Shown here piece by piece: positions 2 through 24,212 of a stretch of 26,979 nt of DNA. The DNA comes from Candidatus Iainarchaeum sp. (GTDB lineage Archaea > Iainarchaeota > Iainarchaeia > Iainarchaeales > GCA-2688035). The notes below the pieces were generated by a model. That model had not been told where the DNA came from and did no database searches. It saw only the letters and a program-made list of their open reading frames with translations. The position numbers and the translations under genes are program-made. The stretch covers positions 1 through 26,979 of the forward strand of contig JAFCFG010000006.1 in NCBI GenBank assembly GCA_017608725.1, written 5' to 3'. The first letter of the stretch is position 1. Every line of letters starts with the position of its first letter.

Positions 2-1183
2 TTGATTGACTTGGAGCTGCCACAAGATTATGGCAGCTTTAACGAATTCTACAGCAAGGCAATCAGCTTCAAATCATTCCTGTTAAAGGACGGTTACAGC
101 GAAGACCTGAGAAAGGACTTTGTTGAGTATTACAACAGCTTGACTGCTGCAAGTGAAATCAGAAACACGCTAACCACAACACGCTTTGGCGAAGAAGATG
201 CCTGGGCATTTGGCGAAAAGGGGCCATATGGGTCTGAATACAGCTTGCCGGAAGCCGGCCTGTACGATATCTTCATTGAGAAAAACTTTGGCGACTTTGC
301 AAGTGCAGAGTGGAATATTCAATTCACCCTGAATGAAAAGCTGCAGGAAATTGATGAAGAATTTGCAAAGAACGTCTTCTTTGAACTGCCATTTGACGGA
401 GAAGTGGGCATATTGAACGAAGGCGGCAAAACAAGGCAGGGCTATGGAATCAGCTTTTCAAATAGCCCAGAGCAAGCGGATATGTATCTCACCTACAAGA
501 CAGACCAAGAGAACGCAAACCTCTTTGATTCAACAGGAGGAGAGCAAAAACTTTCAGTTGAGTTTGGTGAAACCTTTGACAAAACAAATTCCGGGCTGAT
601 ATTGAAGGTTGACCTTGACAAAGGCGAATTTACCTACAACCCCTCGGTTGCAACACCGATTGAGATAGAACTTGGAACAAGCAGGGGAACAGAAATAGAG
701 GGAATGCTCTACGAGCTCAGTGGAACAGAGCAGGGAATTCTGAGAAGCCAGGATAGTATCTTTACCTTTAGAAGCGATGCTAAAAACTTCCTTGACCAGA
801 TATATCCACCTTCAGCTGGAATGAACCTCTGCAGAGAGGTAGGCACATTTGAACTCAACCTGCATGGATTCCAGCAACAGCTTGTAGGGCAGAAGACATT
901 CAAGGGAATTGCATTTGTTCCATTTGCAAGGCAATACACTGTAGTGTTTTACTGCAGCCAAGGGGCAGCAAAGGTTACTTCCCTTGACACAGATGAAACT
1001 ATAAACGTTGGCCAAGGCTACAGAACAGGGGAACTTGACTTGAAACTGCATGAGCCAGTTGAAGCAAAAAAGGTTACCCTGCCTTCATTCCTCAACAAAA
1101 TAGAGGAAGAGCAGGTTTGCATAAAAACAGGGCAGGACAGTATTGAACTGCTGTGGAACAAGGAAAAGCTGCTGTCAGGGTAA
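2..1183 (+). CDS. C-terminal part (5'-truncated by the window edge) of a giant surface-protein paralog (paralog 1)
   Basis: Open frame from the window edge to TAA at 1183. It shares ordered motifs with the C-termini of the two downstream giant ORFs: FKSFLLKDGYSEDLRKDF vs FNAYLIKDAYTNDFREDF / FKAYLIKDGYSGDFQRDF; FFELPFDG..RQGYGISF vs FYYLPFDG..RQGYGVNF / FYNLPFNG..RVGYGVNF; NPSVATP vs SPSYATP / SPNYATP; LWN vs FWN / WWN. Confidence 0.85.
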   Translation: MIDLELPQDYGSFNEFYSKAISFKSFLLKDGYSEDLRKDFVEYYNSLTAASEIRNTLTTTRFGEEDAWAFGEKGPYGSEYSLPEAGLYDIFIEKNFGDFASAEWNIQFTLNEKLQEIDEEFAKNVFFELPFDGEVGILNEGGKTRQGYGISFSNSPEQADMYLTYKTDQENANLFDSTGGEQKLSVEFGETFDKTNSGLILKVDLDKGEFTYNPSVATPIEIELGTSRGTEIEGMLYELSGTEQGILRSQDSIFTFRSDAKNFLDQIYPPSAGMNLCREVGTFELNLHGFQQQLVGQKTFKGIAFVPFARQYTVVFYCSQGAAKVTSLDTDETINVGQGYRTGELDLKLHEPVEAKKVTLPSFLNKIEEEQVCIKTGQDSIELLWNKEKLLSG

Positions 1184-1231
1184 AATGCATACTTAACAGA
1201 AGAGAATATATTGCACAGGTGTTTTTTGGCC

Positions 1232-4200
1232 ATGGCATTGGAAGGATTGAAGGAAGCATATTTTCGCTTAGAGGACAGATGGTATGCTGCAATTGACAGG
1301 ATTGATTCAAGAATACCGATTCACGGCTTGATTGACAGAATTGACAGAATTGTTCCTTCCTTTGCATTGTTTTTGGTTGTTCTCATTGCACTGGTTCTGT
1401 TCCTTGCCTTTATGCTGCCGGGAATGCTGGCAGCAGGAGCCAGATTCTCGTTCAGGGTTGTTGACAGTGAAGGTGCAACAGTGGAGGGTGCAACAGTCCA
1501 GGTGCTAATGGAAGGAAAAGAGATTGCTCTGCAACAGACAGACAAGTTGGGGGAAACAGCCCCAATAGTCCTGCCCTTGGATGCAGAGGTGGAAATAAAG
1601 GTATCAAAAAAAGACTTTATCTCGACTACTAAAACAATCACAGTAAGCGAATCAATTCTGCTTTATGAGGTCATGCTTGAAAGGGAAGAGGAGAAAAGAT
1701 ATACTATTTCTTTAAAGAGCAGCTTAGGGCAGCCGATTAGAGAGCCAGTGATACTCACTTTCAGTTGCAGGAATCCTGCAATTGCTTCATGGGAGGTGCC
1801 TGTTGTAAGCGGCAGTGCAACGGTAACAGAGCCAGCAAACTGCCAAGGCCTAATTGCAAGCGTAAGAGGCCAGGGCTTTGAGCCAATTGACTCAGTTGAT
1901 GTAACTCTAAGCAATCAAACCATTTACTTGCAGGAAATAGTTTCAGGAAATGCAACCATAACAGTTGAATTGCTGTTCAACAACCAAACAATAAGCGAAG
2001 AGGTAACAGTATATCTGTACAGGATTGACGACGCAACAGGGGCAGAGATTGGCCCGATTGAAAGCGCTGTCAGCGAAAATGGCATAGCCACTTTTAGCAG
2101 GCAGCCGGCCCAGTATTTTGTCAAAAGCAGCGGCTATGGGAACTTTGCAGCTGCAAGCAGTGCCTCTTTCAGTGTTTCAGCAGGAGAACAAAAAAACATT
2201 CAACTGCACTTGGAAAGAAATGTTGTTGGATACGTTAAATTGAAGATTTTGGACGAGATAACCGGTGCTGCTGTAGATGATGCAACTGTTTTCCTAAGGC
2301 TGGGCGGGGAAGAAATAGATTCAAAGAAGAGCAGTGCAGATGGAAACGGCTTTGTTGAATTTCCTGTTTCAGTGGACACTGCTTACAGCATCATAGTTGA
2401 CCATCCAGCATATTGTCTAAAAGTAGTGCACGATGTAAACCCAAGCACGAGCGTAAAGCATATTGAATTAAAGCCCTTTACAGTGGACTGCGGTGGAAAG
2501 TTGAAGGTCAAGGTTCTGGACCAGGATGGAAAGCTGGTGAAAGGGGCAACAGTTGGATTGTACACTGAAAGCGGATTCAGCGCGGGATTTTCAACCCAGG
2601 TAACAGATCTGAATGGAATCACTGTCTTTGAGGGGGCACCAAGCGGAAACTACAAGGCGTTTGCATTCAAGGGTTCAAGCAGCGGCTGGAGCGAGGTAGA
2701 ACACTTTGTTCAAAGGGCAGCGGAAAAAACAACGCTTACAGCTGTCTTGGATGTGAAAAACGGAACAGTCAGGGTAAAGGTCATTGACAAGGAGGGAGAA
2801 CCCATGCAATTTTCAGAGGTAGCATTTGTTGACGCAGCAACAAATGAGATAATTGGCGGCGGAGCCAAGCCGGTTCAAGACGTTAATGGCGTAGTTGAAT
2901 TGATTACAAGGGCAGACAAACAGGTTTACATTGTCGCAAGAAATCCCGGTTACACAAACTTCACTTCAATTGTAAAGCCGGTCCTATCCAATAGCACGCA
3001 GAATTTCACTGCTGTTCTGGAGAAAGAGATTATTCAGGGAGAGATTGAGATTGAGTTCAGGGGCGTTTACAAAAATGGGAAAAGCGTTAGTGCACTTGCA
3101 AGGGGTGAGAAATACACTGCATTGTTCAACCTTAAGATACCAGCAAACAAAAGCTATGATGAAATAGGCATGCATGTAAGAACAGGCAGCCACACTATGA
3201 TGGAACTCGACGAGCTTGTTTTGAGGGAAATTAATGCCCCCGGCAAGGCAAACATCCTGAAGGCAACAACCTACAGCCAGGGAGATGGCTATGCTTTTGA
3301 CAGCCGGAACCTAAGCAGCGATGAAGCAAAATGGGCCAACATAAAATGGAATGAATTCCAGACAGGCATAATAGAGGTAGCAGTTGAATTCCAAGTAAAG
3401 GAGGCCACAAGGCAAACAGAGATCCAAGCAGGGGAACTAGAGCTCTCTTACAGGGCATGGGCTGTTGAAAATGGCCTGTACAAGCGAAACCCATTGGACA
3501 ATGATTTGGGGGAGGCAGAGAGCGTGCCAGGAAAGGAAGCATTGTATGCCAAAACAAAGCAGGAGATATTCCAGATTGGCTTGGAAACTATTTGCGATGA
3601 GCTATTCTGCTTCAGCGCAAGCATTTTGGATATAGAAGATGGCCTGATTGAAAGCGCAACCGAAGGTTACAATGGAAAGGTGTTCAAGGAATATAAGCTG
3701 AGTTTTACCATTCTGAACAACAGCGAGTTTGAAACAAACAGCTATCCAAACGCTGAATTGAAGATACTGAATGTTGACGAAGGGCTGCTATTGCAGGACT
3801 ACAAGGCCTATGGAGCCCAGGGCCAGTTGGTTGAAGGCATTGTATCGGGCAGTGAAACGAAATGGATAGCTGTTGGAGACATGGAACCAAATAACACTGT
3901 TGCAGGCAATATAAACTTCACACCGCAGAAATCAACCGGCGGAGCAATTACAATACAGCTTAGGAGCATGCAAAGAATCCAATTTGAGAAGAGCATTATG
4001 ATAAATGCCACTGCAGAAAAGCAGTTGAACGTGGTTGCAGCACCAGAGCTGCTGCCAAGCGGTACACAAAACGACTTGACTGTTACTGTGAAGGACAAGA
4101 GAACAAACGCTGAGCTGGAGAACGCAATTGCAAAGTTAAAAGACAGGTTTGGTGCAATAGTTGCTGAAAAAACAACCAACAGAATGGGCATTGCTGTTTT

Positions 4201-7200
4201 GAGGCTGCCAGGCATGCAGCCTGGGGAAACAATGCGGTTGATTGTGGGAAAGCCAGGCTATGAAACCTTTGAGAGGGCAATCCAAGTAGATGAGAAGGTC
4301 ATTGCAATAAAGCCAACCAAAATTGGCGTTGCCCTGAACACTAAAACAGCATTGGAAGCGGAAGACCAATTCAGTGTTGAAAACATGACAGCGCTTGATT
4401 TGACTATAAAGGATGTGCGATTAACTGGCAGGGCATATGGCCTGATTGACACTGAAAAGATGAACAACTGGCTGTTTGGGTATATTGGCGAAGTGATTAA
4501 GCCAGGTGAGTTAAGGGAGATGCAGCTGAAGTCATTCCTCAGCGAGAAGGGAAGGAAGCTGCAAGAGAGCAGGAACGTGGAAGCAGAACTTGAAATGACT
4601 GTTGCAAGCAACGGAAGCGAATGGGTGCAAACAGCGCCGGTAAAAATAAACGTTGGCTTGGGCGGGGAAGTGGATGACCCAGCGTGCTTTACAGTAACAA
4701 GAAAAGAGTGGAATGGAAGCACTGAGGGAAAGCCAATAGAGATAGAGTTTGAATTGCAGAACAACTGCAGCAGCGGCGGCATTCCTGTCCAGCTAAAGGA
4801 TATTGCAGCAAAAATTGTGTGGCAAACCAACCAGGTTGGCGAGTATGCACTCAGAACCCAGTACACTGCAATTGGGATAAGGAGCGGCTACTTTAAAAAA
4901 TTCATTGAGGTTATTGAACCAGAGCAAAGCGTTTCAGTTGTGCTGCAGTTCAACGCAAATGGCGGAATAAGAGGCAAGGGAATGGCAGAGATAATATTCC
5001 AAGCAGAGAACAAAACTGACACAACAACCCAGCTGCTGACAGATGAGATTTCATCGGAAATAACGGTGGTGAACCTTGCTGACTGCATTGGATTCGATAA
5101 GGATGTCCTGATAATAAAGCCGGAGAAGACTGGTTCATTTAACATTGACACAGTAAACTGCGGTGCAAGGAACGAGATAAAGCTTGAATCGGACCTTGCC
5201 CTAAGCAAGAGAACCCTGACCTTGGGCGAAACAGACAGCAAAGAGGTAGAGGTTTTTGCCGAGAAAAACATGCCTGGGCAGTATCCAGTAAGGGTATATG
5301 CAAAGGGCAGTGATGACGTGCAATTCAAATTGATTAAAACAATCAGGGCAAGAATCCTGAGCGACAAATGCCTTGAATTAACGAGGTATGAATTCGATGT
5401 ATTTGACAATCCAGAGAATCCATATGACGGCTATGATACAGCTGAATTGATCAACAACTGCTATGACAAGCCAGTGCAGATAACAGTACACTACGATGAG
5501 CATGACTGGGGCGACGCAATGAAAACAGGCGCCCTCTACGGCCTTGTAATGGGGTTGATGGGGGCAATGGGCCAATCAGCAGAAAAAAATGCAGCAGCAG
5601 AAATAGCTGCAGCAAGCAGTGTAACCAAGGGAATTACTCCCAATGGGACAATAGTTGCATTGAAGGGCGGCGTATGGACTGATGCAAAAGGCAGCACTGT
5701 AGCGGGAAATGTTTACCCCTACAGAACAATTGAGTCTGGTGGAGCATACTACAGCGGCTATGACCACGGAGATGGAGACCTATACGATGCCCTGGGAAAC
5801 AAAGTGCTTGACAAGAAAACAACTGGTGCATGGTTCTGGAAAGGCACAAAGTATGTGCCAACTGGTAATATAGCAGGGCCTGAAGCAGCCCAGGGCGGAA
5901 TGCCTGCTTCAACAACGGCAACAGGCAGTGTTGTACTTGGTTCGCCTGCCGGTGCATCCCTCCTGGGCGGAATATTTGGAGGGGGAGGCCCCGGAGGCAG
6001 CCTAGCAGGCAACCTTGTTATGGGCTTGGGCAGCTCGATTTTGGGCAAGCCAAGCTTTTTGGGCTGGGGCCTGCAGGGCTTTTTGGCCGGCACACTTATT
6101 GCATACGAGCAGCAGGATGAGGGGGAGCTTAGCTTTACAACAATTGAGAAAGACGTTGTTTACAGGGATTCTGAATTGCTGTTGCCTGGATTAACGCTTG
6201 ATGAAGACAAGATAGTGGAAACCCCTTCAGAGGACATTATTCTAAGGAAACCGGATGAGGAGGAGGTAAGCACCGAACCCAAAGAAGAGGACAGGAGGCT
6301 GAGCAAGGAAACAAGAAAGCTGTGGTTTTGGAATACGGCTGGTGTTGTGCAGCCAGACCCGGAAACCCCGCTGTACAGAATCCTCAGGGTTGACAATGAG
6401 AGAAGAATCTACAAAACAGAGTATGAAACAGATGAAAAAGGGAACCCCGGCATAGAGATAAAGGAAAGGAAGGACCACAAGGAAAGGTTTAGGCTGCAGT
6501 TCAATGCATTTGACCCGCTGCTCATTGACAGGATTTCAGGGCCAATACCAAACTGCAAGCTTGGCAATGTGGTTGGCGTTACAGGGCCGAATGCTGTTCC
6601 AAGGGTTTCGTTTAACTGGGATTGGCAGAGCATTGGAGAGAGCAGCTGTGTGGAGGGAAACGATGACTACATTTACTGCGATGCCACGCAATTCAGCATC
6701 GTTGTTTTGAAGAAACTGCACAAGCTGCAGGAATTCATTGATATGTACAAGCCGTTTGACTGCCCAAGCCCGGTAACGGCAGCTGCAGTCAAGGAACAGC
6801 CTATGGTTGGAACTGCATATGACGTTGCAATTACAAAGATTCAGGCAAACAAAATTGCGACAAGCGATGCAAACATTGTTGTAACGGTTGAAAGCAACAA
6901 CGGCAAGCAGATGGCTTCCAGCCTGCAAATTTTTCTGAGAGATGACACAGGCACTGTTGTAAAAGGCTGTGACAAGCAATTCAGCCTATTGAGCAGGAAT
7001 GTTGTGAACTGCGAATTCACCGGCCTGGCAGAGGGATTGTACGATGTGCAGGCAACAATTGAGCCTGATTTGTGCCCTGATTGTGAGAATAGCGATTCAG
7101 CAAACGATTCAATAAGTGCACAGCTGTTTGTTGGAGCTGGCGGCGTAGTTGAGTGCGAGCCATTCAACACAAAGAGGCTGCCGTTGTTTATTGAGGCAAC

Positions 7201-8491
7201 AGAGGCAGCAGGGAATGCAGCGTGGAGCAACCAGGAGAGGGAAGAGATACTGGAAACGATTAAATTCAATGCATATTTGATTAAGGACGCTTATACAAAT
7301 GATTTCAGGGAAGACTTTGATTTATTCTGCAAGCAGATGAGCTTCTTTGACTGCCCGGATTACTACACGGATTCAAGCAATGGATTGCACAAGCTGTTTG
7401 CAGACAGGGAGAGATTCAGATTTGATTACAGCATGGCCCCACATGCCCCGGTGGACGCTGGAAAGTACGCTGTTGAAATAAACGTTGAGTTTGGCAACCA
7501 GAACTGGGATTTGTTTGTGGGGGAGGAACCAGATGCAACTGTTTCAATTGAAATGGCGCAATTGAGTGCACCGGAGCCAGAGAGCCCGTTTTACTACTTG
7601 CCATTTGACGGCTTGGTTGGAATAGACAGCGAAAACGGCAGGCAGGGTTATGGAGTAAACTTCAGGCAGACAAGCGAGGAAACAATTAAAATCAACAACA
7701 GCCTGCTTCAGCCAGTCATAAGCACCAATGTTGCAAACAGCACGCCTGTCCTAAACGGATGGATTAACGCAGGCTTTAACGACAGCTTCAGGAGGCTGAA
7801 CCAGGACAAGAGGGGGATCCTGCTTGATGTAGTGGCAGGCACTGATTCAACAAATATTGTTTTAAGCCCAAGCTATGCAACCCCTGTTATGATGAAAGTG
7901 GATTACGAGAAAGGTGAGCACGCTTATGGCTTTTATTCAGTTGAAATTGATGACAGCCCGCAGGTTGCCTTTGAAAGAATGATTCCGTGGAGTGGCATAG
8001 GTCCAAATTGCAGGGATTTTGATGACAGACCGGTTACAGAGGCATGGCAGGATACCTGGGACAAGCATGGGGGCATAAGCGGAAACTTGATTTGCGCTGT
8101 TGGTACAGAGGTAACAGATTATGGAATTGAATGGTGCAATCCAAAGAGAAGCGGCAGCGTTTTCCTTGAAAGCGTTGTCTTTACTCCGCAGAATACCGTG
8201 AGCTTGATGAAGAGAACGGCTTACGGCGATGGCATGACTTTGATTACTGCTGACAACAGAGGCAGCCAAGTAGCATTGAACGGCATTCCTGGCATGCGCT
8301 ACAACAGCTTTGGAACAAGCGAAATTGATTCCATTGAGGATGTGTTTGCATTGGTTAGGGAAAGCAAGGTCTGCTTGGTTGGAGCAGATAACAGGAAAAG
8401 CAACCAGTTCTTCTGGAATCCAAAGATTGTATTGCAAGAACTCAGCCAGGAGAGGACAGAGGCTGAAGAGAGCTGTATCAGGCCAGCGTAG
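1232..8491 (+). CDS. Giant (2419 aa) N-terminally membrane-anchored surface protein with carboxypeptidase-regulatory-like (prealbumin-fold) repeats (paralog 2)
   Basis: ATG at 1232 is preceded by an AGGTG RBS-like motif (1217-1221); the ORF track's TTG at 1211 is a less likely start. A hydrophobic segment (FALFLVVLIALVLFLAFMLPG) is followed by repeated units of the type V.V.D..G..V.GA.V...TD..G (e.g. FRVVDSEGATVEGATVQV, VKVLDQDGKLVKGATVGLY...TDLNG, VTVKDKRTNAELENAIAKL), which match the CarboxypepD_reg-like pattern. The protein contains many paired Cys. Confidence 0.85.
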   Translation: MALEGLKEAYFRLEDRWYAAIDRIDSRIPIHGLIDRIDRIVPSFALFLVVLIALVLFLAFMLPGMLAAGARFSFRVVDSEGATVEGATVQVLMEGKEIALQQTDKLGETAPIVLPLDAEVEIKVSKKDFISTTKTITVSESILLYEVMLEREEEKRYTISLKSSLGQPIREPVILTFSCRNPAIASWEVPVVSGSATVTEPANCQGLIASVRGQGFEPIDSVDVTLSNQTIYLQEIVSGNATITVELLFNNQTISEEVTVYLYRIDDATGAEIGPIESAVSENGIATFSRQPAQYFVKSSGYGNFAAASSASFSVSAGEQKNIQLHLERNVVGYVKLKILDEITGAAVDDATVFLRLGGEEIDSKKSSADGNGFVEFPVSVDTAYSIIVDHPAYCLKVVHDVNPSTSVKHIELKPFTVDCGGKLKVKVLDQDGKLVKGATVGLYTESGFSAGFSTQVTDLNGITVFEGAPSGNYKAFAFKGSSSGWSEVEHFVQRAAEKTTLTAVLDVKNGTVRVKVIDKEGEPMQFSEVAFVDAATNEIIGGGAKPVQDVNGVVELITRADKQVYIVARNPGYTNFTSIVKPVLSNSTQNFTAVLEKEIIQGEIEIEFRGVYKNGKSVSALARGEKYTALFNLKIPANKSYDEIGMHVRTGSHTMMELDELVLREINAPGKANILKATTYSQGDGYAFDSRNLSSDEAKWANIKWNEFQTGIIEVAVEFQVKEATRQTEIQAGELELSYRAWAVENGLYKRNPLDNDLGEAESVPGKEALYAKTKQEIFQIGLETICDELFCFSASILDIEDGLIESATEGYNGKVFKEYKLSFTILNNSEFETNSYPNAELKILNVDEGLLLQDYKAYGAQGQLVEGIVSGSETKWIAVGDMEPNNTVAGNINFTPQKSTGGAITIQLRSMQRIQFEKSIMINATAEKQLNVVAAPELLPSGTQNDLTVTVKDKRTNAELENAIAKLKDRFGAIVAEKTTNRMGIAVLRLPGMQPGETMRLIVGKPGYETFERAIQVDEKVIAIKPTKIGVALNTKTALEAEDQFSVENMTALDLTIKDVRLTGRAYGLIDTEKMNNWLFGYIGEVIKPGELREMQLKSFLSEKGRKLQESRNVEAELEMTVASNGSEWVQTAPVKINVGLGGEVDDPACFTVTRKEWNGSTEGKPIEIEFELQNNCSSGGIPVQLKDIAAKIVWQTNQVGEYALRTQYTAIGIRSGYFKKFIEVIEPEQSVSVVLQFNANGGIRGKGMAEIIFQAENKTDTTTQLLTDEISSEITVVNLADCIGFDKDVLIIKPEKTGSFNIDTVNCGARNEIKLESDLALSKRTLTLGETDSKEVEVFAEKNMPGQYPVRVYAKGSDDVQFKLIKTIRARILSDKCLELTRYEFDVFDNPENPYDGYDTAELINNCYDKPVQITVHYDEHDWGDAMKTGALYGLVMGLMGAMGQSAEKNAAAEIAAASSVTKGITPNGTIVALKGGVWTDAKGSTVAGNVYPYRTIESGGAYYSGYDHGDGDLYDALGNKVLDKKTTGAWFWKGTKYVPTGNIAGPEAAQGGMPASTTATGSVVLGSPAGASLLGGIFGGGGPGGSLAGNLVMGLGSSILGKPSFLGWGLQGFLAGTLIAYEQQDEGELSFTTIEKDVVYRDSELLLPGLTLDEDKIVETPSEDIILRKPDEEEVSTEPKEEDRRLSKETRKLWFWNTAGVVQPDPETPLYRILRVDNERRIYKTEYETDEKGNPGIEIKERKDHKERFRLQFNAFDPLLIDRISGPIPNCKLGNVVGVTGPNAVPRVSFNWDWQSIGESSCVEGNDDYIYCDATQFSIVVLKKLHKLQEFIDMYKPFDCPSPVTAAAVKEQPMVGTAYDVAITKIQANKIATSDANIVVTVESNNGKQMASSLQIFLRDDTGTVVKGCDKQFSLLSRNVVNCEFTGLAEGLYDVQATIEPDLCPDCENSDSANDSISAQLFVGAGGVVECEPFNTKRLPLFIEATEAAGNAAWSNQEREEILETIKFNAYLIKDAYTNDFREDFDLFCKQMSFFDCPDYYTDSSNGLHKLFADRERFRFDYSMAPHAPVDAGKYAVEINVEFGNQNWDLFVGEEPDATVSIEMAQLSAPEPESPFYYLPFDGLVGIDSENGRQGYGVNFRQTSEETIKINNSLLQPVISTNVANSTPVLNGWINAGFNDSFRRLNQDKRGILLDVVAGTDSTNIVLSPSYATPVMMKVDYEKGEHAYGFYSVEIDDSPQVAFERMIPWSGIGPNCRDFDDRPVTEAWQDTWDKHGGISGNLICAVGTEVTDYGIEWCNPKRSGSVFLESVVFTPQNTVSLMKRTAYGDGMTLITADNRGSQVALNGIPGMRYNSFGTSEIDSIEDVFALVRESKVCLVGADNRKSNQFFWNPKIVLQELSQERTEAEESCIRPA

Positions 8492-8660
8492 GCAAAAGGG
8501 GAAAATAGGTTGGTTAAATTATTTTTCTGGGGAAAATTAAAAAAGGGAAACGGAAAAAAGGGGAAATTAAAAAAAGGGAAACGGAAAAAAGGGGAAAAGG
8601 GAAATTAAATTAAAAAATTAGGAAAAAGGGGAAGGGAAAAAGGGAAAATTTTAATTAATC
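8492..8660 (+). repeat. Purine-rich low-complexity intergenic tract with an imperfect ~31-bp tandem duplication (8531-8594)
   Basis: GGAAAATTAAAAAAGGGAAACGGAAAAAAGG is followed directly by GGAAATTAAAAAAAGGGAAACGGAAAAAAGGGG. The tract is almost entirely A/G plus short T runs. Confidence 0.75.
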
Positions 8661-8689
8661 AAATTCGTTAATGTAATTGGTTTTGTGCT

Positions 8690-11600: not shown

Positions 11601-14600
11601 CTGCCTGCTTTGCAGCCAAACGCAAAAATAGTGGTTGAGGCAGAGAAGCCAGAGTATTATGCAGAGCCGCTTGTTTTGTTTGTTGACAGCAACGTTCTTA
11701 GGTTCTCTCCTGGCAAAGTGAATTCAAATTTGGATACCAGGGGAGTGAAAGAGCAGGTGTTTACTGCTGAGGCCAGGAATGTTATTGGAATTGACCTCAA
11801 AATCAAGAACATTGCTTTAAGCGGGGCATTCAAGGGGTTGCTTGACAGGGGAACAATGGCAAACTTTGCAAAACAGTACATTGGAATGACAATTGAGGGC
11901 AGCCAAAGCGCTGTAAGGGAGTTCTTCAAAACAAAGCTGAGTGCAAACGCAAGGGAACTGCTTTTAAGGAACGAAAAACTGTTGGGCGAATACGTTGTTA
12001 CTGCAACAAACAGCGACGAAAGCATTACCTGGGACATAATTGTGCCATTGCAGGTTAGGGTGGCTGTTGGCGATTTGCCTGACAATGCACCCTGCCTGAT
12101 AATTTCAAGGGAGAAGTGGGATGCCTCCACTCTTGAGAACAGTGCAACTATTGAATTTGAGGTACAGAACAACTGCATGGCAGCCGGCAGCTTTGTTGAA
12201 TTGGACAATTTGCAGGCAATGCTTGAATGGCAGGGAGACGCAATTGGAACAGTTGAGCTAACATTGATTGAAGCAGAAACCGGCAGCAGCAACAGCGAGA
12301 TTCTAAGGCCTGGAATGTGGGTGCAGTTGTTCAAAACAATTCAGCCTGATTCAATCTACTACGCAATGCTTACCTTTACACCAAAGCAGGGCCATTTGGG
12401 TGAGACAGCGAAATTCACTGTGGACATAGATGGCCAGACAACCACAAGCGGGGGCAGTGCCTTTGTTGGCTCAAAGCCAAGCAAAATCACCTCAAACATT
12501 AAAGTCGTGAATTTGCAGCAGTGCATCACATACGAGGGAGCAGAGAACGTTGTTGAATTAAGAGCTGGGCAAAACGATGGGGCATTTACTGTTGATTCAA
12601 GTGATTGCGGTAACACTGGGGTAACAATTGAATTATGCAGGCAAAATCCAAATTGCAGCGGGGGAGCAGAGGGAGGAATTGAAGTAACCCCCCTAAGCTT
12701 TACCCTAAGGCCAGACAACCCAACAAAGGAAATACTTGTAAGCAGAAGAAGCATTCCGGGAATGTATGGAATCAACGTTGAGGCAAAAGTAGCAGGCACC
12801 TCTTTCAGAGAGGTAAAGAATATTGATGTATTGGTTGAACCAGAATCAAGCAATGAATTTGCTCTTGACAAATATGAACTGAGTTTGAAGGGGATTGGGG
12901 CAAAGGACGAGGTAAAGCTGACAAACAAGGCATTGAGTGAAACTGTTTCAGTTGATGCTTCTGCATGCGACTGGGGCACAGCAGAGGAAGAAGGAATGTT
13001 TGACTTGGCTGGAGCTGGGATGGGTGCTGCTATTGCAGCATTGTTGGGCGCAAAAACAGCGATAGAGCAGGCAAGCGAAGCAACAAACGCAGTTAACCTT
13101 GCAAGAACCACGGATTTAAGCAATGCGCTTGAACAGGCAAGAGCAGCAAACCAGGCAACAGAAGCTGCAAAGGCTGCAAGCGAGGCAGCGAAAACTGCTT
13201 CGGAAACAGCCCAAAATGAGGCAGTGAAGTCAGCAAATAGAGCTGTTCAGCAGGCAGCAGCAAAAGCAGGCAGCATTCCAGCAACATGTGATGCAGGCAC
13301 TAACACATACTTGGGCAATGCAAGTAGCAATACAGGTGCAGCAGACACAACTGCAAGCAGCTCATTTATTTCAAGTATCGGAAGCATGATCGGGTCAATT
13401 TTAAGTGGTGTTGGAAAAATTGGCAGCGGCGTATTTAACACTATTACAGGAAGGGAAACAGCATCAGCCAATGAGGCCTGGCAGGTAAGCACTTCCCCAA
13501 TGAACTCAACAAAGGACCTTGACAACAGCATTGCTGATACAGATAGCGCGATTTCGCATGTAACTGATAACAGGGCAGAACTGGTAAAAAGCCGGGCTGA
13601 TGCTGAAACAATGCTGGCAGAACTGAACAATGCAAAAATACAGCTTGCCGGGGCAAGTGCATCAATAGATTCCAGCATTGGCATATGCACTGCTGATTGC
13701 GCACTAGAACCAGCAGGGCCCTGCTGCCCGCACCTTGGCACTGCCCAGGCTGCCAAAGGGGAAATAAATGCTGCCATTGCAGCAGTTGACAACGCTATTG
13801 CAAAAACAGAGGCTGCAAAGGCAGAAATTGCGGAAGCAATTAGTTCAGCAGATAGCTCCCTTGCTGAGCTTCAAAGTACGCAAACACTGCTTCAAAACGC
13901 AAAAACCTCAATGGGCAAGCTTGGCAAAACAATGGCAGCAACAGAGGGGGCAAGCAGCTTTAACAAAGGCAAGTTCTTTGGCATTTTGGGTACGTATGCT
14001 GCATTGGGTGCAATTGCCGGTGGCCTAATGGGCGGCGTATTTGGAGATGACCCCTGTGACCAAAGGGTTACTGCAAACCTAATGGACTATGTGATTAACC
14101 TGAAGGATGATAATTTGCCACTGGCTGTTGACAAAGAGGGAGTTACTGCGGAGTGGAAAACAGATGGTGCACAGGTCTTTGGCACTTATGATAGCCAGGA
14201 AGTTGGAATTGAATTTAATAATGTTTCGGTTGAACCGGGAAAGCCGACCTATGCAACAGTAACCATTAGTGCAACAAGGCATTACCATGCAAGCCCAACA
14301 ACTATTAGCAGGGGCGACTCAGGATTTGGGCCATTTAATGTTCCTGACCAAAGAAGCGAAACCTACACCCAGAAGTTCCACTTGAAGCTTAACACAAAGG
14401 ATATCTCGCTTGAAATACCCCCCCTGCCAGAGGAAGAAGGCTGCCTGATGGGAACCCTTGTAGGGAGAACAGGCAGGGAAGCCCTGCCAAAAATAAAGCT
14501 TAATTGGAGCTGGGATGACCAAACAGGGATTGCAGCAGATGAGTGCGATTATTTGAACGATGAAGCAGTTTACTGTGATGCAACCCAGTTTGGCATAATG

Positions 14601-16139
14601 GTGAACAAAAGGCTGAGGGCATTGGAGCAATTCCTTTCAGCGAATACTCCCCTGCCCTGCCCGCCAAATCCCGCAATAGAATCCCTGGAAGAGATTGGGG
14701 AGGAATACAATGCAGCCCTGGACGAGCTGGGCATGGTGCCGTTTGTTCCGATGGACGTGGACAGTTGTTGGATGCCCCGTTCTACTGTTCTGTTTGACGG
14801 AAAGCCTGCTTTGCTTTACTACGTTGAAGCAAATTTGGATAGCATTACTTGGACTGAGGAAGTGCCTGATTTGGATTCCCTGAGAAAGCTGCTGCATTTC
14901 AAGGCCTATTTGATTAAGGACGGCTACAGTGGGGATTTCCAGCGTGACTTTGTTGAATTCTATACGACAACCAGCTTTTATGACCCTCCGGAATGGTTTG
15001 TTGGTTCAGGGGAGAGATACGCTGACCTGTTCAGTGACCAGGATATTATGAGGTTTAGAACAAGGTATGCTGGGGATGAAAGGCTGTCTTCAGCTGGCTT
15101 GTATGATGTGGTTCTGGCAGTCAATTACTTCAATGAGGACTGGCAGTTGTTCAGGCTGGGTTTGCCTGATGCAAAGATTGTTGTTGACCTGCATCTTATT
15201 GAGAACCCTTACCCTGACTCAATATTCTACAACCTGCCGTTCAACGGAAACATTGGAAAGGAAAGTAGCAACGGCAGGGTTGGCTACGGTGTGAATTTTG
15301 AGAACAGGAAGGACAACATCCTGATTACCGAGTACCCGGGCGAATCAATTGACACTGCTGCAATTAGCGGCAGCACTACCATAAGCGTTATTGAAACAGA
15401 TGTTGAAACTGACATAAAGAAAATCAATGCAAGCGCTTCCAACAGGGGATTTTTGATGAATGTGGCAGAGGGCTCAGGCAGTGTAAAGGAAATAACCTTC
15501 AGCCCAAATTATGCCACTCCTGTTTTGCTGCAGCTCAGCCATGGCAGGGACGAAGAGCCCTTCTCTGCGTTCTATCAGCTGCAGGAAACCCTGACGCCTG
15601 TAGAGGTTGGAACAAACCTTGGGTTTTGGACTGGCTCAGGAGAATGCTTGGACTTTACTGGCATTCCAGTATTTGAGGCATTTGACTTCAAGGCAGACAG
15701 GGAAGCAACTAGCAGCGACAGGCTAAGCAACTGGGAGTTTGCCTATGCAGTTGACTGGGACAAGGCAGACTACAGCGGCAATGTTTACCTTAAAACAGTG
15801 TTCTTTACCCCAACAAACGGCAGCTATAATTTGAAGGCACTGCAGCCAACTGAACTAAAGTTTATTACACCAAGCAGTGGCAGCCAGCAGGTAGTTGAAT
15901 TGGAGGGAATTAGGGGCATGCAGCACAACAGCAGGCAGGGGATGGACAATGCAAAGAGCCTGCAGGACCTCTTTGATTTGGTGGAAAGCAGGCATGTCTG
16001 CGTTACAAATTCAGGGGCAAGGACAGCGTTTTGGTGGAATCCGAAAACATTGTACGAAACAGCCGGCCCAAACACAAGCATTAGGGACTTTGAAGAAGGC
16101 CTTGTTGCTGGCCAAAGCTGCATTGGATACAGCAGTTGA
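8690..16139 (+). CDS. Giant (~2480 aa) surface protein (paralog 3), interrupted by a frameshift near 8880-8895 (possible pseudogene or assembly error)
   Basis: ORF 8690-8929 (MGLKDAYVALEDKWYGFLDRVDAHIPIYKIVDPIDRVVPSLLLFIAVIVALLAFFLIMPG) aligns residue for residue with the N-terminus of paralog 2. A second frame is open from 8880 (after TGA at 8877-8879) to TGA at 16139 and reads ...VAEVINSKETGADGSIKFNAP...LKEKGLPF, running into the tracked 9072 ORF. Domain order and motifs (DWG, YCDATQF, YLIKDGY) match paralog 2. Confidence 0.8.
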
Positions 16140-16235: not shown

Positions 16236-16450
16236 AAACCAGCCTTATTTTGGGGAAAAATCAATTAACAGGGGGCCAGTTTCTTAAAGCGCCCTGTAGA
16301 AATGATTCATAAATGCAAAATTTGAATCCCTTAAATCGGCTTTAAACGGCAAAATAGCAGCAAGGCATTTATAAACAAAAATAGAATTTCTACACAGGAT
16401 TTCTTAAAGCAAATTAATTTAAATCAGAACAATTATTCTAGTTATTGGTT

Positions 16451-16843
16451 ATGGTTCAAGATATTTTGCCAATGCTCTTTGCTTTGTTTTCCTTTTCAGA
16501 GTTTTTTGGAGACATGACCTTTGTTTTGAAGATATTTGTTTTAATGACAATAATCAGCTTTATTGTAATGCATTTGGGAACAGGGCCCCTGGCAATCATA
16601 TTGATTTTGGGGATAAGCTACTTTGTTTTGATTGGTGCTTTTTGGTTTTTTGGCTCAGTCTATGTTCTAATGATGCTGCTGATGTTCGGAGTTTCAGGCA
16701 TTTTAATTGATTTCTTTTTTGTTGGAGGGATGGGAACGCCGCAAGAGCAGACACCAATAAGCCATGGTATTGACTTGAGGGCAAAGAGGGGGGCAATGAT
16801 GGCGCATGGCAGAGGCAGCCCCAGAAGAAGAATGATGAGATGA
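16451..16843 (+). CDS. Small multi-pass membrane protein (130 aa) with a basic C-terminal tail
   Basis: ATG at 16451 lies two codons after the tracked TTG. About 95 aa are almost entirely hydrophobic and are followed by an Arg-rich tail (RAKRG...RGSPRRRMMR). It contains the LG-x3-LAI-x7-Y motif shared with the next two ORFs. Confidence 0.75.
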   Translation: MVQDILPMLFALFSFSEFFGDMTFVLKIFVLMTIISFIVMHLGTGPLAIILILGISYFVLIGAFWFFGSVYVLMMLLMFGVSGILIDFFFVGGMGTPQEQTPISHGIDLRAKRGAMMAHGRGSPRRRMMR

Positions 16844-16849
16844 AAAAAG

Positions 16850-17188
16850 ATGGCTTTTTCAATGAACCAGCAGGGGAACATGCTTTTGTTTATTTTCATT
16901 GCCTTCCTTATCTTAGCTGTGCTGCCCCCCATTGTAATGATGCTGTTTCCAGCGGCAGACATCATAATCAGGGTAATACTTGTTTTGCTGATTTTTTCAA
17001 CTGTAAGGGGCTATCTTGGAGGGGGCATTCTCTCGCTTATAATTAGCGGCGTGCTAATTTACTTCCTTGTAATCAAATGGGCTTACTTCACTGCATCCAT
17101 GTATGTGTTCTTTTACTTCATAATGACCTTTGCAATTACCTCAGTGGTGATTTGGGGAATCGGAATGAATATAGGGAAAAGGGGGTAG
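16850..17188 (+). CDS. Small multi-pass membrane protein (112 aa)
   Basis: Hydrophobic throughout, with 3-4 predicted helices. It starts 6 nt after the previous stop codon (operon-like) and carries LGGGILSLIISGVLIY. Confidence 0.8.
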   Translation: MAFSMNQQGNMLLFIFIAFLILAVLPPIVMMLFPAADIIIRVILVLLIFSTVRGYLGGGILSLIISGVLIYFLVIKWAYFTASMYVFFYFIMTFAITSVVIWGIGMNIGKRG

Positions 17189-17243
17189 AGTAACTGCTAA
17201 CCAGACTTTATAAATGGGCCAATAAATGCTGTATTAGGGGGCA

Positions 17244-17260
17244 GAGAAGGTTTTATAATA
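17244..17260 (+). promoter_or_regulatory. Candidate archaeal BRE/TATA promoter
   Basis: Purine-rich GAGAAGG immediately followed by TTTTATAATA, about 45 nt upstream of ATG 17301. An AAGGTG RBS-like motif (17285-17290) lies between them. Confidence 0.4.
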
Positions 17261-17300
17261 AAGAAACGGCATTAATTTCTATGTAAGGTGCATCAAAAAA

Positions 17301-17564
17301 ATGTTTTTTGCATTGCTGCAATTGAACGAGGCAACCCTGTACACTGATCTGTGGACAGTTCTCTCACTGTTCTACCTTGTGTGGATCTTTGGCTGGGCAA
17401 AGAATGCACTGGGTTCAGCAAAGCTTGCAATACTGTTTGCGGTAATAGTTGTTTACCTGACTTTCTTTTTGCACCCTGAACTGGTCTGGTTGCCAGTGCT
17501 GATAATAATTTTTGCTGCCCTTGGAAAAGGCGTGTTTGAAAAAGCAAACGTGTTCAAGGACTGA
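17301..17564 (+). CDS. Small multi-pass membrane protein (87 aa)
   Basis: AAGGTG upstream of the ATG, three hydrophobic segments, and the motif LGSAKLAILFAVIVVY. Confidence 0.8.
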   Translation: MFFALLQLNEATLYTDLWTVLSLFYLVWIFGWAKNALGSAKLAILFAVIVVYLTFFLHPELVWLPVLIIIFAALGKGVFEKANVFKD

Positions 17565-17576
17565 GCTGGAAAGGGA

Positions 17577-17921
17577 GTGGTTTTTTTGGATACATTTACC
17601 TTCATGGTTGCTATTCTCCTAATGATGCTTGCAGTGCAATTCAACCAAAACTGGCTTGTTTTTGCAATTGTTGCAATAATGATTCTAACCATGCGGAGTC
17701 TTAGCACCACGCTTTTCCTAATAATTGCAACAATTGTAATGTTTGTTTCAAAAGAGTATCTTAAGGAATACTGGCCATTTGTTCTGTTTGGCCTAATAAT
17801 CCTTGCGCTGTTGATTGGCATTGGAAAGAAGGACGGGGGCCAGCCGGAGGCGATGCCAATGGACCTGTACGGCGGTGGCTTTGATGCAGGGGGCTTTGGC
17901 GGCTTACCAGGGGGGCTTTGA
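17577..17921 (+). CDS. Small multi-pass membrane protein (114 aa) with a Gly-rich C-terminal tail
   Basis: GTG start after GGAAAGGGA, about four hydrophobic segments, and the tail GGGFDAGGFGGLPGGL. Confidence 0.8.
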   Translation: MVFLDTFTFMVAILLMMLAVQFNQNWLVFAIVAIMILTMRSLSTTLFLIIATIVMFVSKEYLKEYWPFVLFGLIILALLIGIGKKDGGQPEAMPMDLYGGGFDAGGFGGLPGGL

Positions 17922-17986
17922 AATCGGGGTTGTTTGATTAGGAGGGGCTTTGAGGTCAGGGTTATTCTATTAGGGGGCTTTGAAAT
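17909..17986 (+). repeat. Degenerate ~31-bp tandem triplication beginning across the stop codon at 17919-17921
   Basis: GGGGGCTTTGAAAT at 17911-17924 and 17973-17986, and GGGGCTTTGA at 17944-17953. Confidence 0.6.
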
Positions 17987-18372
17987 TGTTGTTTTATCAG
18001 ATGAGGCAGAGCATTATCTTTCTCCTGATAATAGCAGGGTTTGGATTCATTGCAATTGACCAGCCGCTGCCGGCTGGCCTTTGCTTTATTGCAGCTGTTC
18101 TCCTCCTAATAGTGAAAACAGTGAAGAAAACAGTTCAAGCAGCAGGGGCAACAGCAGGGGTAATGGGCTACGGCGTTAAAGAGGAAGTCAGCAAAGCAAA
18201 GGGCAATTACCCTGACCCAAACGTTTTCAAGGAGGGCATTGAAAACGCAATTGACTTAACAGCACAGCAGGTGCACGCACCGGACACGCACAAGTTCAAG
18301 TACAAGGGAGTTGGCGCATTTGGTGAGGGATGCAACAAACTGATTGACGCATTCAAAAGGGTTTTCAGATAG
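17980..18372 (+). CDS. Membrane protein (~130 aa) with two N-terminal hydrophobic helices and a soluble C-terminal region
   Basis: Hydrophobic hairpin IIFLLIIAGFGFIAI...LCFIAAVLLLIV followed by a charged region. The start is uncertain (TTG 17980 or ATG 18001). Confidence 0.75.
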   Translation: MKLLFYQMRQSIIFLLIIAGFGFIAIDQPLPAGLCFIAAVLLLIVKTVKKTVQAAGATAGVMGYGVKEEVSKAKGNYPDPNVFKEGIENAIDLTAQQVHAPDTHKFKYKGVGAFGEGCNKLIDAFKRVFR

Positions 18373-18410
18373 GGAAATGCAAAAAAACTATAGGGAAATG
18401 CAAAAAAACT
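18369..18410 (+). repeat. Perfect 21-bp tandem duplication including the stop codon TAG (18370-18372)
   Basis: ATAGGGAAATGCAAAAAAACT at 18369-18389 and 18390-18410. Confidence 0.9.
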
Positions 18411-18433
18411 GTTTGAATTAACCAAAAAAAAGC

Positions 18434-18520
18434 TTTTCAGGCAAGGGCAGGCCGGCTGGTTGAATTATTCAAAAAGGGTTTTTTCAGGCAAGGGCAGGCC
18501 GGCTGGTTGAATTATTCAAA
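18434..18520. repeat. Perfect 40-bp direct repeat (period 47) between convergent genes, each copy with internal palindromes
   Basis: TTTTCAGGCAAGGGCAGGCCGGCTGGTTGAATTATTCAAA at 18434-18473 and 18481-18520. Each copy contains GCCGGC and TTGAAT-T-ATTCAA. Confidence 0.9.
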
Positions 18521-18540
18521 GGGCTTTAAGTAGAGAAAAA

Positions 18541-19074
18541 CTACATCTTCCCAAGAATCTTCCTGTCGGTTTCAAGAATCTTTTCCATAACGGTTTTCAG
18601 GGCCTTGTTTAAGGCCTTTAAATCAGAAACCTGCTTTTCAAGGCTGCCCAGCCTTTGGTTTGCTGCTGCAAGCATGTCAACTAGTTCTTTGTTGCTTGGT
18701 GCCTCTGTTAAACTGTGGATTTTTCCAAGCTTTTGCTCGACCCTGCCAACCTTCCTGCCCAATTCCTCAAGCCTTTCACCGTGGTCTGCAATTGCAGCCT
18801 GCGTGGTTGCATGCATTGCCTCCTGGGCAGCAAGCTCTTCCTCAACCCTGCTGCTTGCCATCTGCTTAATCGGGGGAGAAGGCCTTGCAGTTGGGGCTGG
18901 CGCTGCAGCAGCTGGCTTTTCTTCAATTGGCTGGCCCTTTGCCTCTGCCATATAGGCCTCTATTTCCCTCTCATTCAAACCAACGTCAAGCAGGGTTTGC
19001 TTTACAACGCTGTCCTCAATTCCAGAGTCGTACATTTTCTTAATTGTCTCCAGTACAACCGCTTTGTTTACCAT
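18541..19074 (-). CDS. Hypothetical protein (177 aa): small N-terminal helical domain, Pro/Ala linker, C-terminal coiled coil
   Basis: GGAAGG RBS-like motif upstream on the minus strand, heptad pattern in RLEELGRKVGRVEQKL and RLGSLEKQVSDLKALNKAL, and a natural amino-acid composition. Confidence 0.8.
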   Translation of the reverse strand: MVNKAVVLETIKKMYDSGIEDSVVKQTLLDVGLNEREIEAYMAEAKGQPIEEKPAAAAPAPTARPSPPIKQMASSRVEEELAAQEAMHATTQAAIADHGERLEELGRKVGRVEQKLGKIHSLTEAPSNKELVDMLAAANQRLGSLEKQVSDLKALNKALKTVMEKILETDRKILGKM

Positions 19075-19295
19075 GCAACCAGTTCCTTCCTTTTTTCCTT
19101 CAATTATTGAATTTTGATTTTCAAAATTTTCTTGCAGGGCTTGAAATCAAACAAATTCCGATTATTGGCCAATTGAAAGTTTTATATTTTACTTATAATA
19201 ATATTATACTTATTTAAATAACTGCTGGATTATAATAGCTGGGGAACCAGTGCGAAATTGAAAAACTGTTGGATTATGGCTGTGAGTGAAAAGGG

Positions 19296-20822
19296 ATGAT
19301 ATTCAAATTAAGGCAGGGGCCTTGGACAACCGTTTTCGAAGGCAAGTTTCTTGGCCATGAGGTTGAACTGCTCCAAAACGAAGAAGGGCTGCTGCTGACA
19401 GTTATCTACGAGAAGGAAGGCGAAGAAACAAGGGGAATGCTGCTGCAGGCATTCACGCTGTTTCACGCAATCGGAGAGGTCCAGGGCTTTGTTGAAGGCC
19501 TGGGCAACGAAGCGCTTACTTTTTCAAGGCACGATGGAAAAAGCACCATTCACTTTCTAATAGCTGGCTCGAAACCAGAGTACAGCAGGGTTGTTGAGGA
19601 ATCAGTGACAGACACTGTTGACAGGCTAATAGAGCAGGCAAGGCAAAGGGGGAAAAGGCTGTCAAACATATCAAAGACTTATGAGCTGCAGCTAACGCCC
19701 TTGCAGGAGTGCAGCAGAAACGTAAAGCAAATCTTCTTCAGCCAACCGTTCATCATTCCGCTGCTTCAAAAGGTTGAACAAGGCAAAGAACAGGAGCCAG
19801 CTGCTGAGCTGGTGTCAGAGCCAAGGCAGGGGGAAGCAATCATACTTGGAATAACGAAGGACGAAAAGCAGGTTAAGGAGCCGCTGCTGTTCTTCAAAAA
19901 CACGCTTGTTGAAGGCAAGCCAGAGCAGGAGAGGCTGCACTTCCTATGCCTCCTAATAGAGAGTGCTCTTATCTCCAACATAGTTGTGATAATATTTGAT
20001 GAGGGGCACTACTTCGATGGCTTGAGAAGGCCGAATAGGAATGTTCCACTGCTTCAAAGGTACAAGGTTGCAATAGAGCCGATTGGCTTCCCAGTAAAAA
20101 ACTTCAAGGCGGCGGACGATATAAAGGTTGATTTAAGCAGCGTCAGCATAGAGGGGCTGATGCAGACATTTGGGTGCCCTGCAGCAACATGCCAATTGGT
20201 CCATGAGGGAATTGAAAACAAAGGCATTCAAAGCATGGAAAAACTGATTGAAACGGTTAATACAGCAAAGGGCCAAGAGAGAACGTTTTTGTTTGAAAGA
20301 AACAGGGTCAAGAGAATAATCAAGCTCATTGAGGTGCTTTACCCGGGGCTTTTTGGTGCAGGAAACGACATGCAGCAGATTGCAAGAGGTTGGTTTAAGG
20401 CAATTGGCAGGGCAAGCGTTATTCAAGTAGATGGGTTGGACGGGCGGGCCAGGGCTGTCCTGGTTAACAGTTTTTTAAACGAGTTGGCAGCATTCTTCAA
20501 ACAAAGGCATGGCAAGGGGGAACTGGAGGCAATTGTTGTTCTGCCAAATGCTGCAAAAATATTTCCAAGAAAGCAAACAATTCTGAGCAAGGACTCGGTA
20601 AATGCTCTGAAGCTGCTGCAGCAAACCGGGGTTGGATTTGCTATGACAGCTGACAGAATCCTTGACTTGGATGCAGAGCTTGCTGAAATGGCTGATGCAA
20701 CAGTAAGCATTGTCAAAGCAAACGATGCAGCCATTCAATTGAAGGGCAGGAAGAGCTACAGGGTTTTGCTGAGGCCAGGCCTTAGCGAGTGCACAGGGGA
20801 CCGGCAAACAGGGCAAAAATAG
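19296..20822 (+). CDS. HerA/FtsK-superfamily (DUF853/YjgR-like) ATPase homolog with degenerate catalytic motifs
   Basis: The motif order matches HerA-like ATPases: IILG...TLVEG(P-loop position)...LIESAL...VVIIFD..YFDGL...FPV, then GRASVI..D...LNEL...IVVLPNAAKIF (Walker B position)...GVGFAMTADRILDLD. The Walker A GK[ST] and Walker B DE residues are absent. The family call is from pattern recognition, not a profile search. Confidence 0.6.
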   Translation: MIFKLRQGPWTTVFEGKFLGHEVELLQNEEGLLLTVIYEKEGEETRGMLLQAFTLFHAIGEVQGFVEGLGNEALTFSRHDGKSTIHFLIAGSKPEYSRVVEESVTDTVDRLIEQARQRGKRLSNISKTYELQLTPLQECSRNVKQIFFSQPFIIPLLQKVEQGKEQEPAAELVSEPRQGEAIILGITKDEKQVKEPLLFFKNTLVEGKPEQERLHFLCLLIESALISNIVVIIFDEGHYFDGLRRPNRNVPLLQRYKVAIEPIGFPVKNFKAADDIKVDLSSVSIEGLMQTFGCPAATCQLVHEGIENKGIQSMEKLIETVNTAKGQERTFLFERNRVKRIIKLIEVLYPGLFGAGNDMQQIARGWFKAIGRASVIQVDGLDGRARAVLVNSFLNELAAFFKQRHGKGELEAIVVLPNAAKIFPRKQTILSKDSVNALKLLQQTGVGFAMTADRILDLDAELAEMADATVSIVKANDAAIQLKGRKSYRVLLRPGLSECTGDRQTGQK

Positions 20823-24146: not shown

Positions 24147-24212
24147 AGGGAAAGGAAAGAAAATCTTTTATTCTAAAAGCGTGTAATGGGTATTAAAAAG
24201 AAGTAATTGAAA

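Follow-up and report, generated by a model that had tools for sequence, protein, structure and literature searches.

The 26,979-nt stretch of DNA analysed here (the window, contig JAFCFG010000006.1 from a metagenome-assembled genome of the archaeal phylum Iainarchaeota) raises the question whether three giant surface-type proteins (giants A to C), five small membrane proteins (S1 to S5), two coiled-coil proteins (CC1 and CC2) and a protein of HerA fold (HER), all encoded side by side, form one apparatus spanning the cell envelope, as an earlier note on this DNA had proposed. The answer favoured here, held at roughly even confidence, is that the window represents an ancestral Iainarchaeota-specific neighbourhood, made up of a replication block and two envelope modules that can occur apart, and not one proven machine. 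The block matches no described system and is built almost wholly of protein families lacking annotation: no model describing it was found in Pfam and NCBIfam, and a literature search did not retrieve a description of this cluster. The three giant paralogs, the five genes for small membrane proteins and the HerA-like open reading frame (ORF) are all present at or near the positions given before. Two coiled-coil ORFs do flank HER, but both are on the minus strand and CC2 lies beyond position 20822, where the stretch described in the earlier note had ended. The eleven genes are as follows.

2 to 1183, plus strand: giant A, C-terminal 393 amino acids (aa), cut at the contig end; aligns to the C-terminal lobe of giant C (E 9e-19)
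1232 to 8491, plus strand: giant B, about 2419 aa, with ATG at 1232; leader, transmembrane (TM) anchor, immunoglobulin (Ig)-like and CarboxypepD_reg domains, C-terminal lobe
8690 to 16139, plus strand: giant C; leader and TM anchor at 8690-8890, body at 8891-16139, C-terminal lobe at 14244-16136
16445 to 16843, plus strand: S1, small polytopic membrane protein with basic C-terminal tail; paralog of S2 and S3
16850 to 17188, plus strand: S2, paralog of S1
17301 to 17564, plus strand: S3, shorter than its paralogs S1 and S2; opens module B (see below)
17577 to 17921, plus strand: S4, three-helix membrane protein with Gly-rich C-terminal tail; unrelated to S1-S3
17980 to 18372, plus strand: S5, N-terminal TM hairpin and soluble tail of about 80 aa
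18541 to 19074, minus strand: CC1, small N-terminal helical domain, Pro/Ala linker and C-terminal coiled coil; divergent from HER
19296 to 20822, plus strand: HER, 508 aa, HerA fold with HAS barrel and RecA-like domain, lacking Walker A and B
21105 to 21578, minus strand: CC2, coiled-coil protein with conserved QKMKYLVRNEKILGRNL core and poly-Lys tail; divergent from the gene of a family-B DNA polymerase (PolB)

The separation into modules is deduced from gene order in relatives, which was compared in about 40 loci, taken from public contigs and, for about 20 families, from one genome each. The order giants, S1, S2, S3, S4, S5, CC1, HER, CC2 and PolB, with CC1 and CC2 on the opposite strand, is kept in most families and persists at HER identities of 24-30%, including a second order or class of the phylum and the deepest families, f31 and f32. 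With the same order recurring in about 40 loci, more often than by chance, a conserved lineage-specific neighbourhood is supported. S1 was identified in 55 high-quality genomes; its distance from HER is below 7 kb in about 39 of them, four are undecidable owing to contig ends, and in about 12 the genes truly lie apart. All breaks between the half with the giants and the half with HER fall between S2 and S3, in at least four families (f7, f10, f6 and f22). In f7, the stretch S3-S4-S5-CC1-HER-CC2 lies in reverse orientation between S2 and PolB. In f10, the halves are apart in 10/10 genomes, at 135-152 kb where the markers share a contig, and the complete genome G014 bears giants, S1 and S2 at 469-479 kb and S3-S5, CC1, HER, CC2 and PolB at 340-345 kb. 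In the complete f6 genome G006, giants and S1 are located at 257-276 kb and HER, CC1 and an S3-like gene at 584 kb, placing the halves 308 kb apart, while CC2 is found at 74 kb and PolB at 618 kb. In the f22 genome G102, giants and S1 lie 27-45 kb from HER, and CC2 and PolB together on another contig. Hence, the unlinking in relatives that the earlier note had named as speaking against a functional connection is borne out in part, the two halves being unlinked in three of the about 20 families (f10, f6 and f22).

Across these rearrangements, certain genes stay together. S1 directly follows the giants in all genomes examined, and this adjacency is kept in five of five rearranged ones. CC1 adjoins HER even in the most rearranged genomes, being found beside it in f6, f10 and f22. 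S3 is likewise next to HER in f6 and f10 but was not detected beside it in the f22 locus. In the examined genomes where the two halves lie apart, both are present. Median intergenic gaps across the loci amount to 7 nt between S1 and S2, 55 nt between S2 and S3, 9 nt between S3 and S4 and -1 nt between S4 and S5; the widest gap among the S genes thus coincides with the recurrent breakpoint. Accordingly, three blocks can be distinguished: module A with giants, S1 and S2, module B with S3-S5, CC1 and HER, and a third block of CC2 and PolB followed downstream by genes for a PKD-domain protein and an M24 peptidase. As their linkage survives all rearrangements seen and their genes are tightly packed, modules A and B are well supported as functional units.

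The giants of module A are related to each other, B and C showing 28% identity over 1331 aa (E 5e-115) and a second block of similarity over the C-terminal 400 aa, to which the truncated ORF of giant A also aligns. A leader of about 45 aa with the consensus MGLKDxYxSLEDKYYxxLDKIxxxIPIYKIxDPIDxVVPSF is conserved across 20 giants and abuts one strong N-terminal TM helix (Kyte-Doolittle 3.3). Behind this anchor follow tandem Ig-like ectodomains; matches to Pfam models, namely CarboxypepD_reg (above threshold), Big_1, SpaA and MG-type beta-sandwiches, are confined to the region near the N-terminus. With membrane anchor and many Ig-like and CarboxypepD_reg domains, the giants fit the type of surface protein assumed in the earlier note, and they would be surface coat or adhesin proteins. 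Besides the anchor, many giants possess one or two extra hydrophobic helices near residue 1500, and in giant C a Gly-rich hydrophobic helix pair in mid-protein flanks a coiled-coil insert of about 310 aa. The C-terminal lobe was modelled at high confidence (631 aa, alignment of 40 sequences, predicted local distance difference test (pLDDT) 90.7, predicted template modelling score 0.82). As a whole it has no counterpart in the PDB (best Foldseek E 0.05), and an exhaustive VIA search returned at best an adhesin-type beta-sandwich over residues 421-565 (Z 4.1). In AFDB the lobe matches a single uncharacterised cluster only, and searching the protein atlas with it yielded Ig-like noise only.

In their size above 2000 aa, tandem paralogs, beta-sandwiches of CarboxypepD_reg, Big and SpaA-like type and the adhesin-like sandwich of the C-terminal lobe, the giants resemble the SPEARE proteins of Nanohaloarchaeota and the Bap/MSCRAMM adhesins. 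In contrast to known giant adhesins, they carry a conserved leader with signal-anchor instead of a cleaved signal peptide, in many cases a mid-protein hydrophobic hairpin, and a 630-aa C-terminal lobe lacking a whole-domain PDB match, and in each genome examined their genes come together with S1 and S2.

Five ORFs of the source genome bear the leader, two in the window and three elsewhere (C160, C86 and C67). The ORF C86:2-6691 (minus strand) encodes a 2230-aa giant paralog cut at its 3' end and is probably the N-terminal part of giant A. A 2675-aa ORF (C67:1-8025, plus strand) combines leader and anchor of the giants with a body not giving any phmmer match to giants B or C. As this body is not detectably homologous, the leader behaves as a portable module. 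In the window, the leader ORF and the body of giant C are in different frames, with the break at 8890/8891. In the sequencing run that matches best, a public Logan contig has 65 extra nucleotides (65 = 3x21+2) exactly at this position; since these join the frames of leader and body, the gene is probably intact and the break is probably due to a small assembly deletion or gap, or to a population variant. A pseudogene was considered and, as the public contig restores the frame, rejected as the likeliest explanation. Purine-rich tandem repeats (8529-8604 and 8621-8648) fill the spacer between giants B and C, where the assemblies of three runs end or diverge. In the most divergent fully syntenic locus, a putative toxin-antitoxin-like pair (UPF0175/DUF3368; L005:3086-3912) is inserted between giant and S1, showing that this junction tolerates insertions.

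The small proteins S1-S5 (87-132 aa, two to four helices) are encoded co-directionally between 16445 and 18372 and, just as CC1 and CC2, each represent a well-conserved orthologous family across the loci. Pfam and NCBIfam searches did not give a match for any of S1-S5, and the protein atlas had no usable match for S5. In profile-profile comparison with hhalign, employing 26-38 aligned orthologs per family, S1 and S2 score 97.8% (E 9e-13), S1 and S3 94.0% (E 1.4e-7) and S2 and S3 82.0% (E 1e-5), with the similarity among the three located over a helix-LG-helix hairpin. Pairs including S4 or S5 reach at most 16%, though these proteins are equally hydrophobic. Paralogy is consequently restricted to S1, S2 and S3, while S4 and S5 are, by these profiles, unrelated to them and to each other. 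The paralogy marked by the LG-x3-L[AS][IL]-x7-aromatic pattern, which the earlier note had seen, is thus confirmed but confined to the first three. This paralogy is the sole link at the sequence level between modules A and B. The positive-inside rule suggests that the basic tail of S1 and the soluble tail of S5, which follows a Lys-rich stop-transfer segment, are probably cytoplasmic.

Module B centres on HER. An AlphaFold 2 model (21 homologs, pLDDT 79.7) features an N-terminal HAS-type beta-barrel and a RecA-like core. Among the top 50 Foldseek matches in the PDB almost all are HerA proteins, one being TdpAB (best E 1e-13), and VIA ranks HerA first (Z 24.2, residues 175-508), followed by VirB4 (21.6), TrwB (17), STIV2 B204 (15.7) and FtsK (14.6). 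At the level of fold, HER thus belongs to the FtsK-HerA superfamily. At the P-loop position, however, the window protein reads VEGKPEQERL, and the family consensus is GGxxxxR, not GxxxxGK[ST]; the Walker B site reads IVVLPNAA with a conserved Pro417 and without the acidic pair expected from hhhhD[DE]. Canonical Walker A or B motifs are found at these sites in 0/149 full-length representatives of the HER family. The classification as pseudo-ATPase therefore stands not only for this ORF but for the whole family, and HER is predicted to be unable to bind or hydrolyse ATP in the canonical way. HER did not match Pfam or NCBIfam models at E<=0.1 and thus stays below the gathering threshold of DUF87 (PF01935); it is not among the PF01935 matches of the source genome, such a match is precomputed for just two of 26 homologs, and a PDB sequence search with the HER profile yielded only a marginal match to YjgR/DUF853 (E 0.12).

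HER belongs to a large family of 401 representatives at E<=0.001, 177 of them at E<=1e-30. Its members occur in 190 of the 201 genomes of the phylum, in all 58 of high quality and in 74 of 76 genera, mostly with one match each. Relatives include records labelled Micrarchaeota, and the family may extend beyond Iainarchaeota. Like the HerA of HerA-NurA repair and HerA-Sir2/DUF4297 defence systems, HER combines a HAS barrel with a RecA-like core bearing a helical insertion, about 300-320 residues being aligned. Unlike HerA, it lacks Walker A and B, a DUF87 match and a nuclease or Sir2 partner, and its neighbours are small membrane and coiled-coil proteins. The source genome holds three canonical DUF87 matches outside the block, the P-loop being confirmed in two (C162 and C2). 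A 1391-aa ORF (C50:1881-6053, plus strand) has a DUF87 match, shows no GK[ST] P-loop at that domain and may represent a second, unrelated HerA-type pseudo-ATPase.

The coiled-coil proteins gave generic coiled-coil noise only in Pfam and NCBIfam. CC2 is distinguished by its almost invariant core and a basic C-terminus, and the protein atlas returned for it only its own family, in Iainarchaeota only.

According to the favoured reading of two envelope modules, the giants would form a surface coat or act as adhesins, each displaying two large lobes, with the leader next to the TM helix probably exposed to the cytoplasm. S1 and S2 would be obligatory small membrane partners required for insertion, anchoring or clustering of the giants. 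In module B, HER might serve as an inert ring scaffold beneath the membrane, to which S3-S5 and CC1 would tether it, and through the paralogy of S3 the two modules could plausibly meet in one hetero-oligomeric membrane platform. The adjacency of A, B and PolB would most simply reflect the ancestral gene order of the phylum. Folds, motif loss, paralogy, distribution across the phylum and module boundaries are observed, and this proposal builds on them.

Several points weigh against it. That HER forms a ring, that any of these proteins touch and that module B acts at the envelope is inferred, and so is the topology, which is derived solely from hydropathy and the positive-inside rule. HER has the fold of DNA translocases and is encoded near PolB, making an envelope role of module B debatable. 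Since PolB, the PKD-domain protein and the M24 peptidase share the conserved order, part of the adjacency may be meaningless inheritance. The hhalign scores between membrane proteins may be inflated by composition, an effect argued against by the low scores of the S4 and S5 control pairs. Finally, prediction of a complex of HER, CC1, CC2 and the giant leader (residues 1-46, own alignments) scored 0.00, which speaks neither for nor against binding.

The alternative that survives best develops the proposal of the earlier note: all eleven genes would encode one new envelope machine for display, assembly, cell contact or membrane penetration. In its most novel form, this machine would have no relationship to Sec-only display, type IV pili, Ced or type IV secretion systems (T4SS). 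Two elements of layout have been envisaged, both sharing the tentative standing of this reading as a whole: a platform of S1, S2 and S3 together with S4 and S5 might hold the TM segments of the giants, and a nucleotide-independent HER ring, braced by CC1 and CC2, might dock the giants' leader from the cytoplasm. In support, the full set is adjacent in most families, among them f31 and f32 at the low HER identities mentioned, all genes stay contiguous in the f7 inversion, both halves are near-universal in the phylum, and the S1/S2/S3 paralogs span both modules. Moreover, the leader is more conserved than the ectodomains, suggesting a dedicated partner, and the coiled-coil insert between the hydrophobic helices of giant C could reach the cytoplasm. 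However, the halves are separated by 27-308 kb in f10, f6 and f22, HER, CC1 and CC2 are each transcribed as a unit of their own from alternating strands, and HER cannot act as motor. Likewise, PolB is equally conserved in the block, and as this enzyme is plainly unrelated to the envelope, adjacency alone cannot join giants and HER in one machine. Of the envelope-spanning apparatus, the conserved neighbourhood and the S1-S3 paralogy thus remain, whereas its coherence rests on an adjacency that is broken between S2 and S3 and is just as tight for PolB. Small paralogous membrane subunits often co-assemble, and with the paralogy of S1, S2 and S3 this keeps the single apparatus alive as a possible, albeit improbable, explanation.

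For this reading, the earlier note had pointed to contact-dependent transfer machines of the Ced type. Ced, Ted and T4SS also place small hydrophobic proteins of two or three helices beside a protein of HerA/VirB4 fold, and VirB4 is the second-best structural match of HER. S1-S3, with their helix-LG-helix hairpin, are similar in size to the VirB2-like subunits CedA1/A2, a comparison made by description only. CedB and VirB4, however, are active motors; HER lacks both Walker motifs and the block does not encode another ATPase. Judged by the size and topology of S1-S5, a polytopic CedA/VirB6-like protein is absent as well, and to our knowledge giant surface proteins are not part of Ced. With the active motor and the CedA-like protein both missing from the block, the defining features are lacking and the Ced analogy fails.

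A second parallel, by analogy only, is the archaellum motor, in which FlaH forms a non-hydrolysing ring of RecA fold accompanied by the coiled-coil proteins FlaX or FlaC/D/E. Similarly, the block would combine a non-hydrolysing RecA-fold protein with cytoplasmic coiled coils under a membrane platform, and CC1 and CC2 show faint FlaC_arch signals (Pfam E 0.047, atlas score 0.79) that are below any threshold. In contrast to the archaellum, HER has the HerA fold and not that of KaiC/FlaH, and Pfam matches to a PilB/FlaI (T2SSE) ATPase, a PilC/FlaJ platform or subunits with class III signal peptides were not found in ORFs of the block. Elsewhere in the 1.1-Mb source genome there are seven T2SSE (PilB/FlaI-type) matches over the Pfam cut-off, all on other contigs (L039-L045), which is unusually much type IV filament machinery for a DPANN archaeon.

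More doubtful is that HER with CC2, and perhaps CC1, serves the chromosome as DNA clamp, membrane tether or adaptor in replication or segregation, leaving giants and S proteins unrelated to it. The closest structures are indeed DNA translocases (HerA, then VirB4, TrwB and FtsK), and such a role would explain the conserved place of HER beside PolB. In addition, the divergent CC2-PolB pair is kept in most families and, in G102, even at a distance from HER, and the poly-Lys tail of CC2 could bind DNA. When the block breaks, however, HER follows CC1 rather than PolB, which weakens a DNA-related role: in f6 and f22 HER is separated from PolB and CC2 yet still adjoins CC1, and in f6 S3 as well, and in G006 CC2, PolB and HER are all dispersed. 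Furthermore, S3-S5 form a compact run immediately upstream of the CC1/HER pair, and neither NurA, Mre11, Rad50 nor any other nuclease or repair partner is among the Pfam matches in the block.

An integrated mobile element or provirus carrying as cargo PolB, a packaging ATPase of HerA type and large spike or surface proteins is very improbable and is excluded by the distribution across the phylum: although the combination of PolB, FtsK/HerA fold and giants bears a superficial likeness to archaeal viruses and to casposon-like or pTN3-like elements, and STIV2 B204 matches the HER core (Z 15.7), HER is near-universal, mostly single-copy and in the same chromosomal context with the M24 peptidase downstream, this PolB is the only PolB match in the genomes tested, HER lacks the ATPase motifs needed by a packaging enzyme, integrase, capsid or att features were not seen in the window nor an integrase domain in the ORFs scanned, and GC content is even.

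A replacement machine for cell division was also considered, as FtsZ and Snf7 were not found in the source genome. FtsZ is present in 58/58 high-quality genomes of the phylum, so the source genome is just incomplete, and this candidate was rejected.

The remaining features of the window belong to its context.

8529 to 8604, no strand assigned: purine-rich tandem repeat in the spacer between giants B and C, 2.3 copies of the 31-nt unit GGGGAAAATAAAAAAAGGGAAACGGAAAAAA
21717 to 24146, plus strand: PolB, family-B DNA polymerase within the conserved gene order; context, not a claimed component
24207 to 26438, plus strand: PKD-domain membrane protein, frequent downstream neighbour; context

A C-terminal TM helix and a long tail rich in Lys and Glu characterise the PKD-domain protein, whose place downstream of PolB is conserved in many families but not in all. 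Two loci have a much longer syntenic PolB: in L005:10603-14286 it has 1227 aa and an intein matching Pfam Intein_splicing, and in L056:15015-18947 it occupies an open frame of 1310 aa. In a distant locus, a Laminin_G_3 protein with a faint match to class III signal peptides is encoded between HER and CC2 (L008:11588-13342), and a 997-aa protein upstream takes the place of the S genes. The source genome (1.14 Mb, 82% complete) belongs to the Diapherotrites of the DPANN archaea, and the runs best matching the window are hydrothermal vent metagenomes. The block occupies about 2% of the 1.1-Mb genome, and GC (guanine plus cytosine) content is uniform along the whole window.

Iainarchaeota (Diapherotrites) are uncultured DPANN archaea, and we know of no account of their cell envelope or of whether and how they contact other cells. 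The near-universal block provides this phylum with a pseudo-enzyme family built on the HerA fold, small membrane proteins that form a paralog family, two families of coiled-coil proteins so far seen in Iainarchaeota alone, and giants whose leader and C-terminal lobe are both new. Natural rearrangements indicate which genes to consider together, namely giants, S1 and S2 on the one hand and S3-S5, CC1 and HER on the other, and the block offers ordered targets for proteomics, cryo-electron tomography and multimer modelling. If true, a HerA ring kept for scaffolding rather than motor work would be a new use of this fold.

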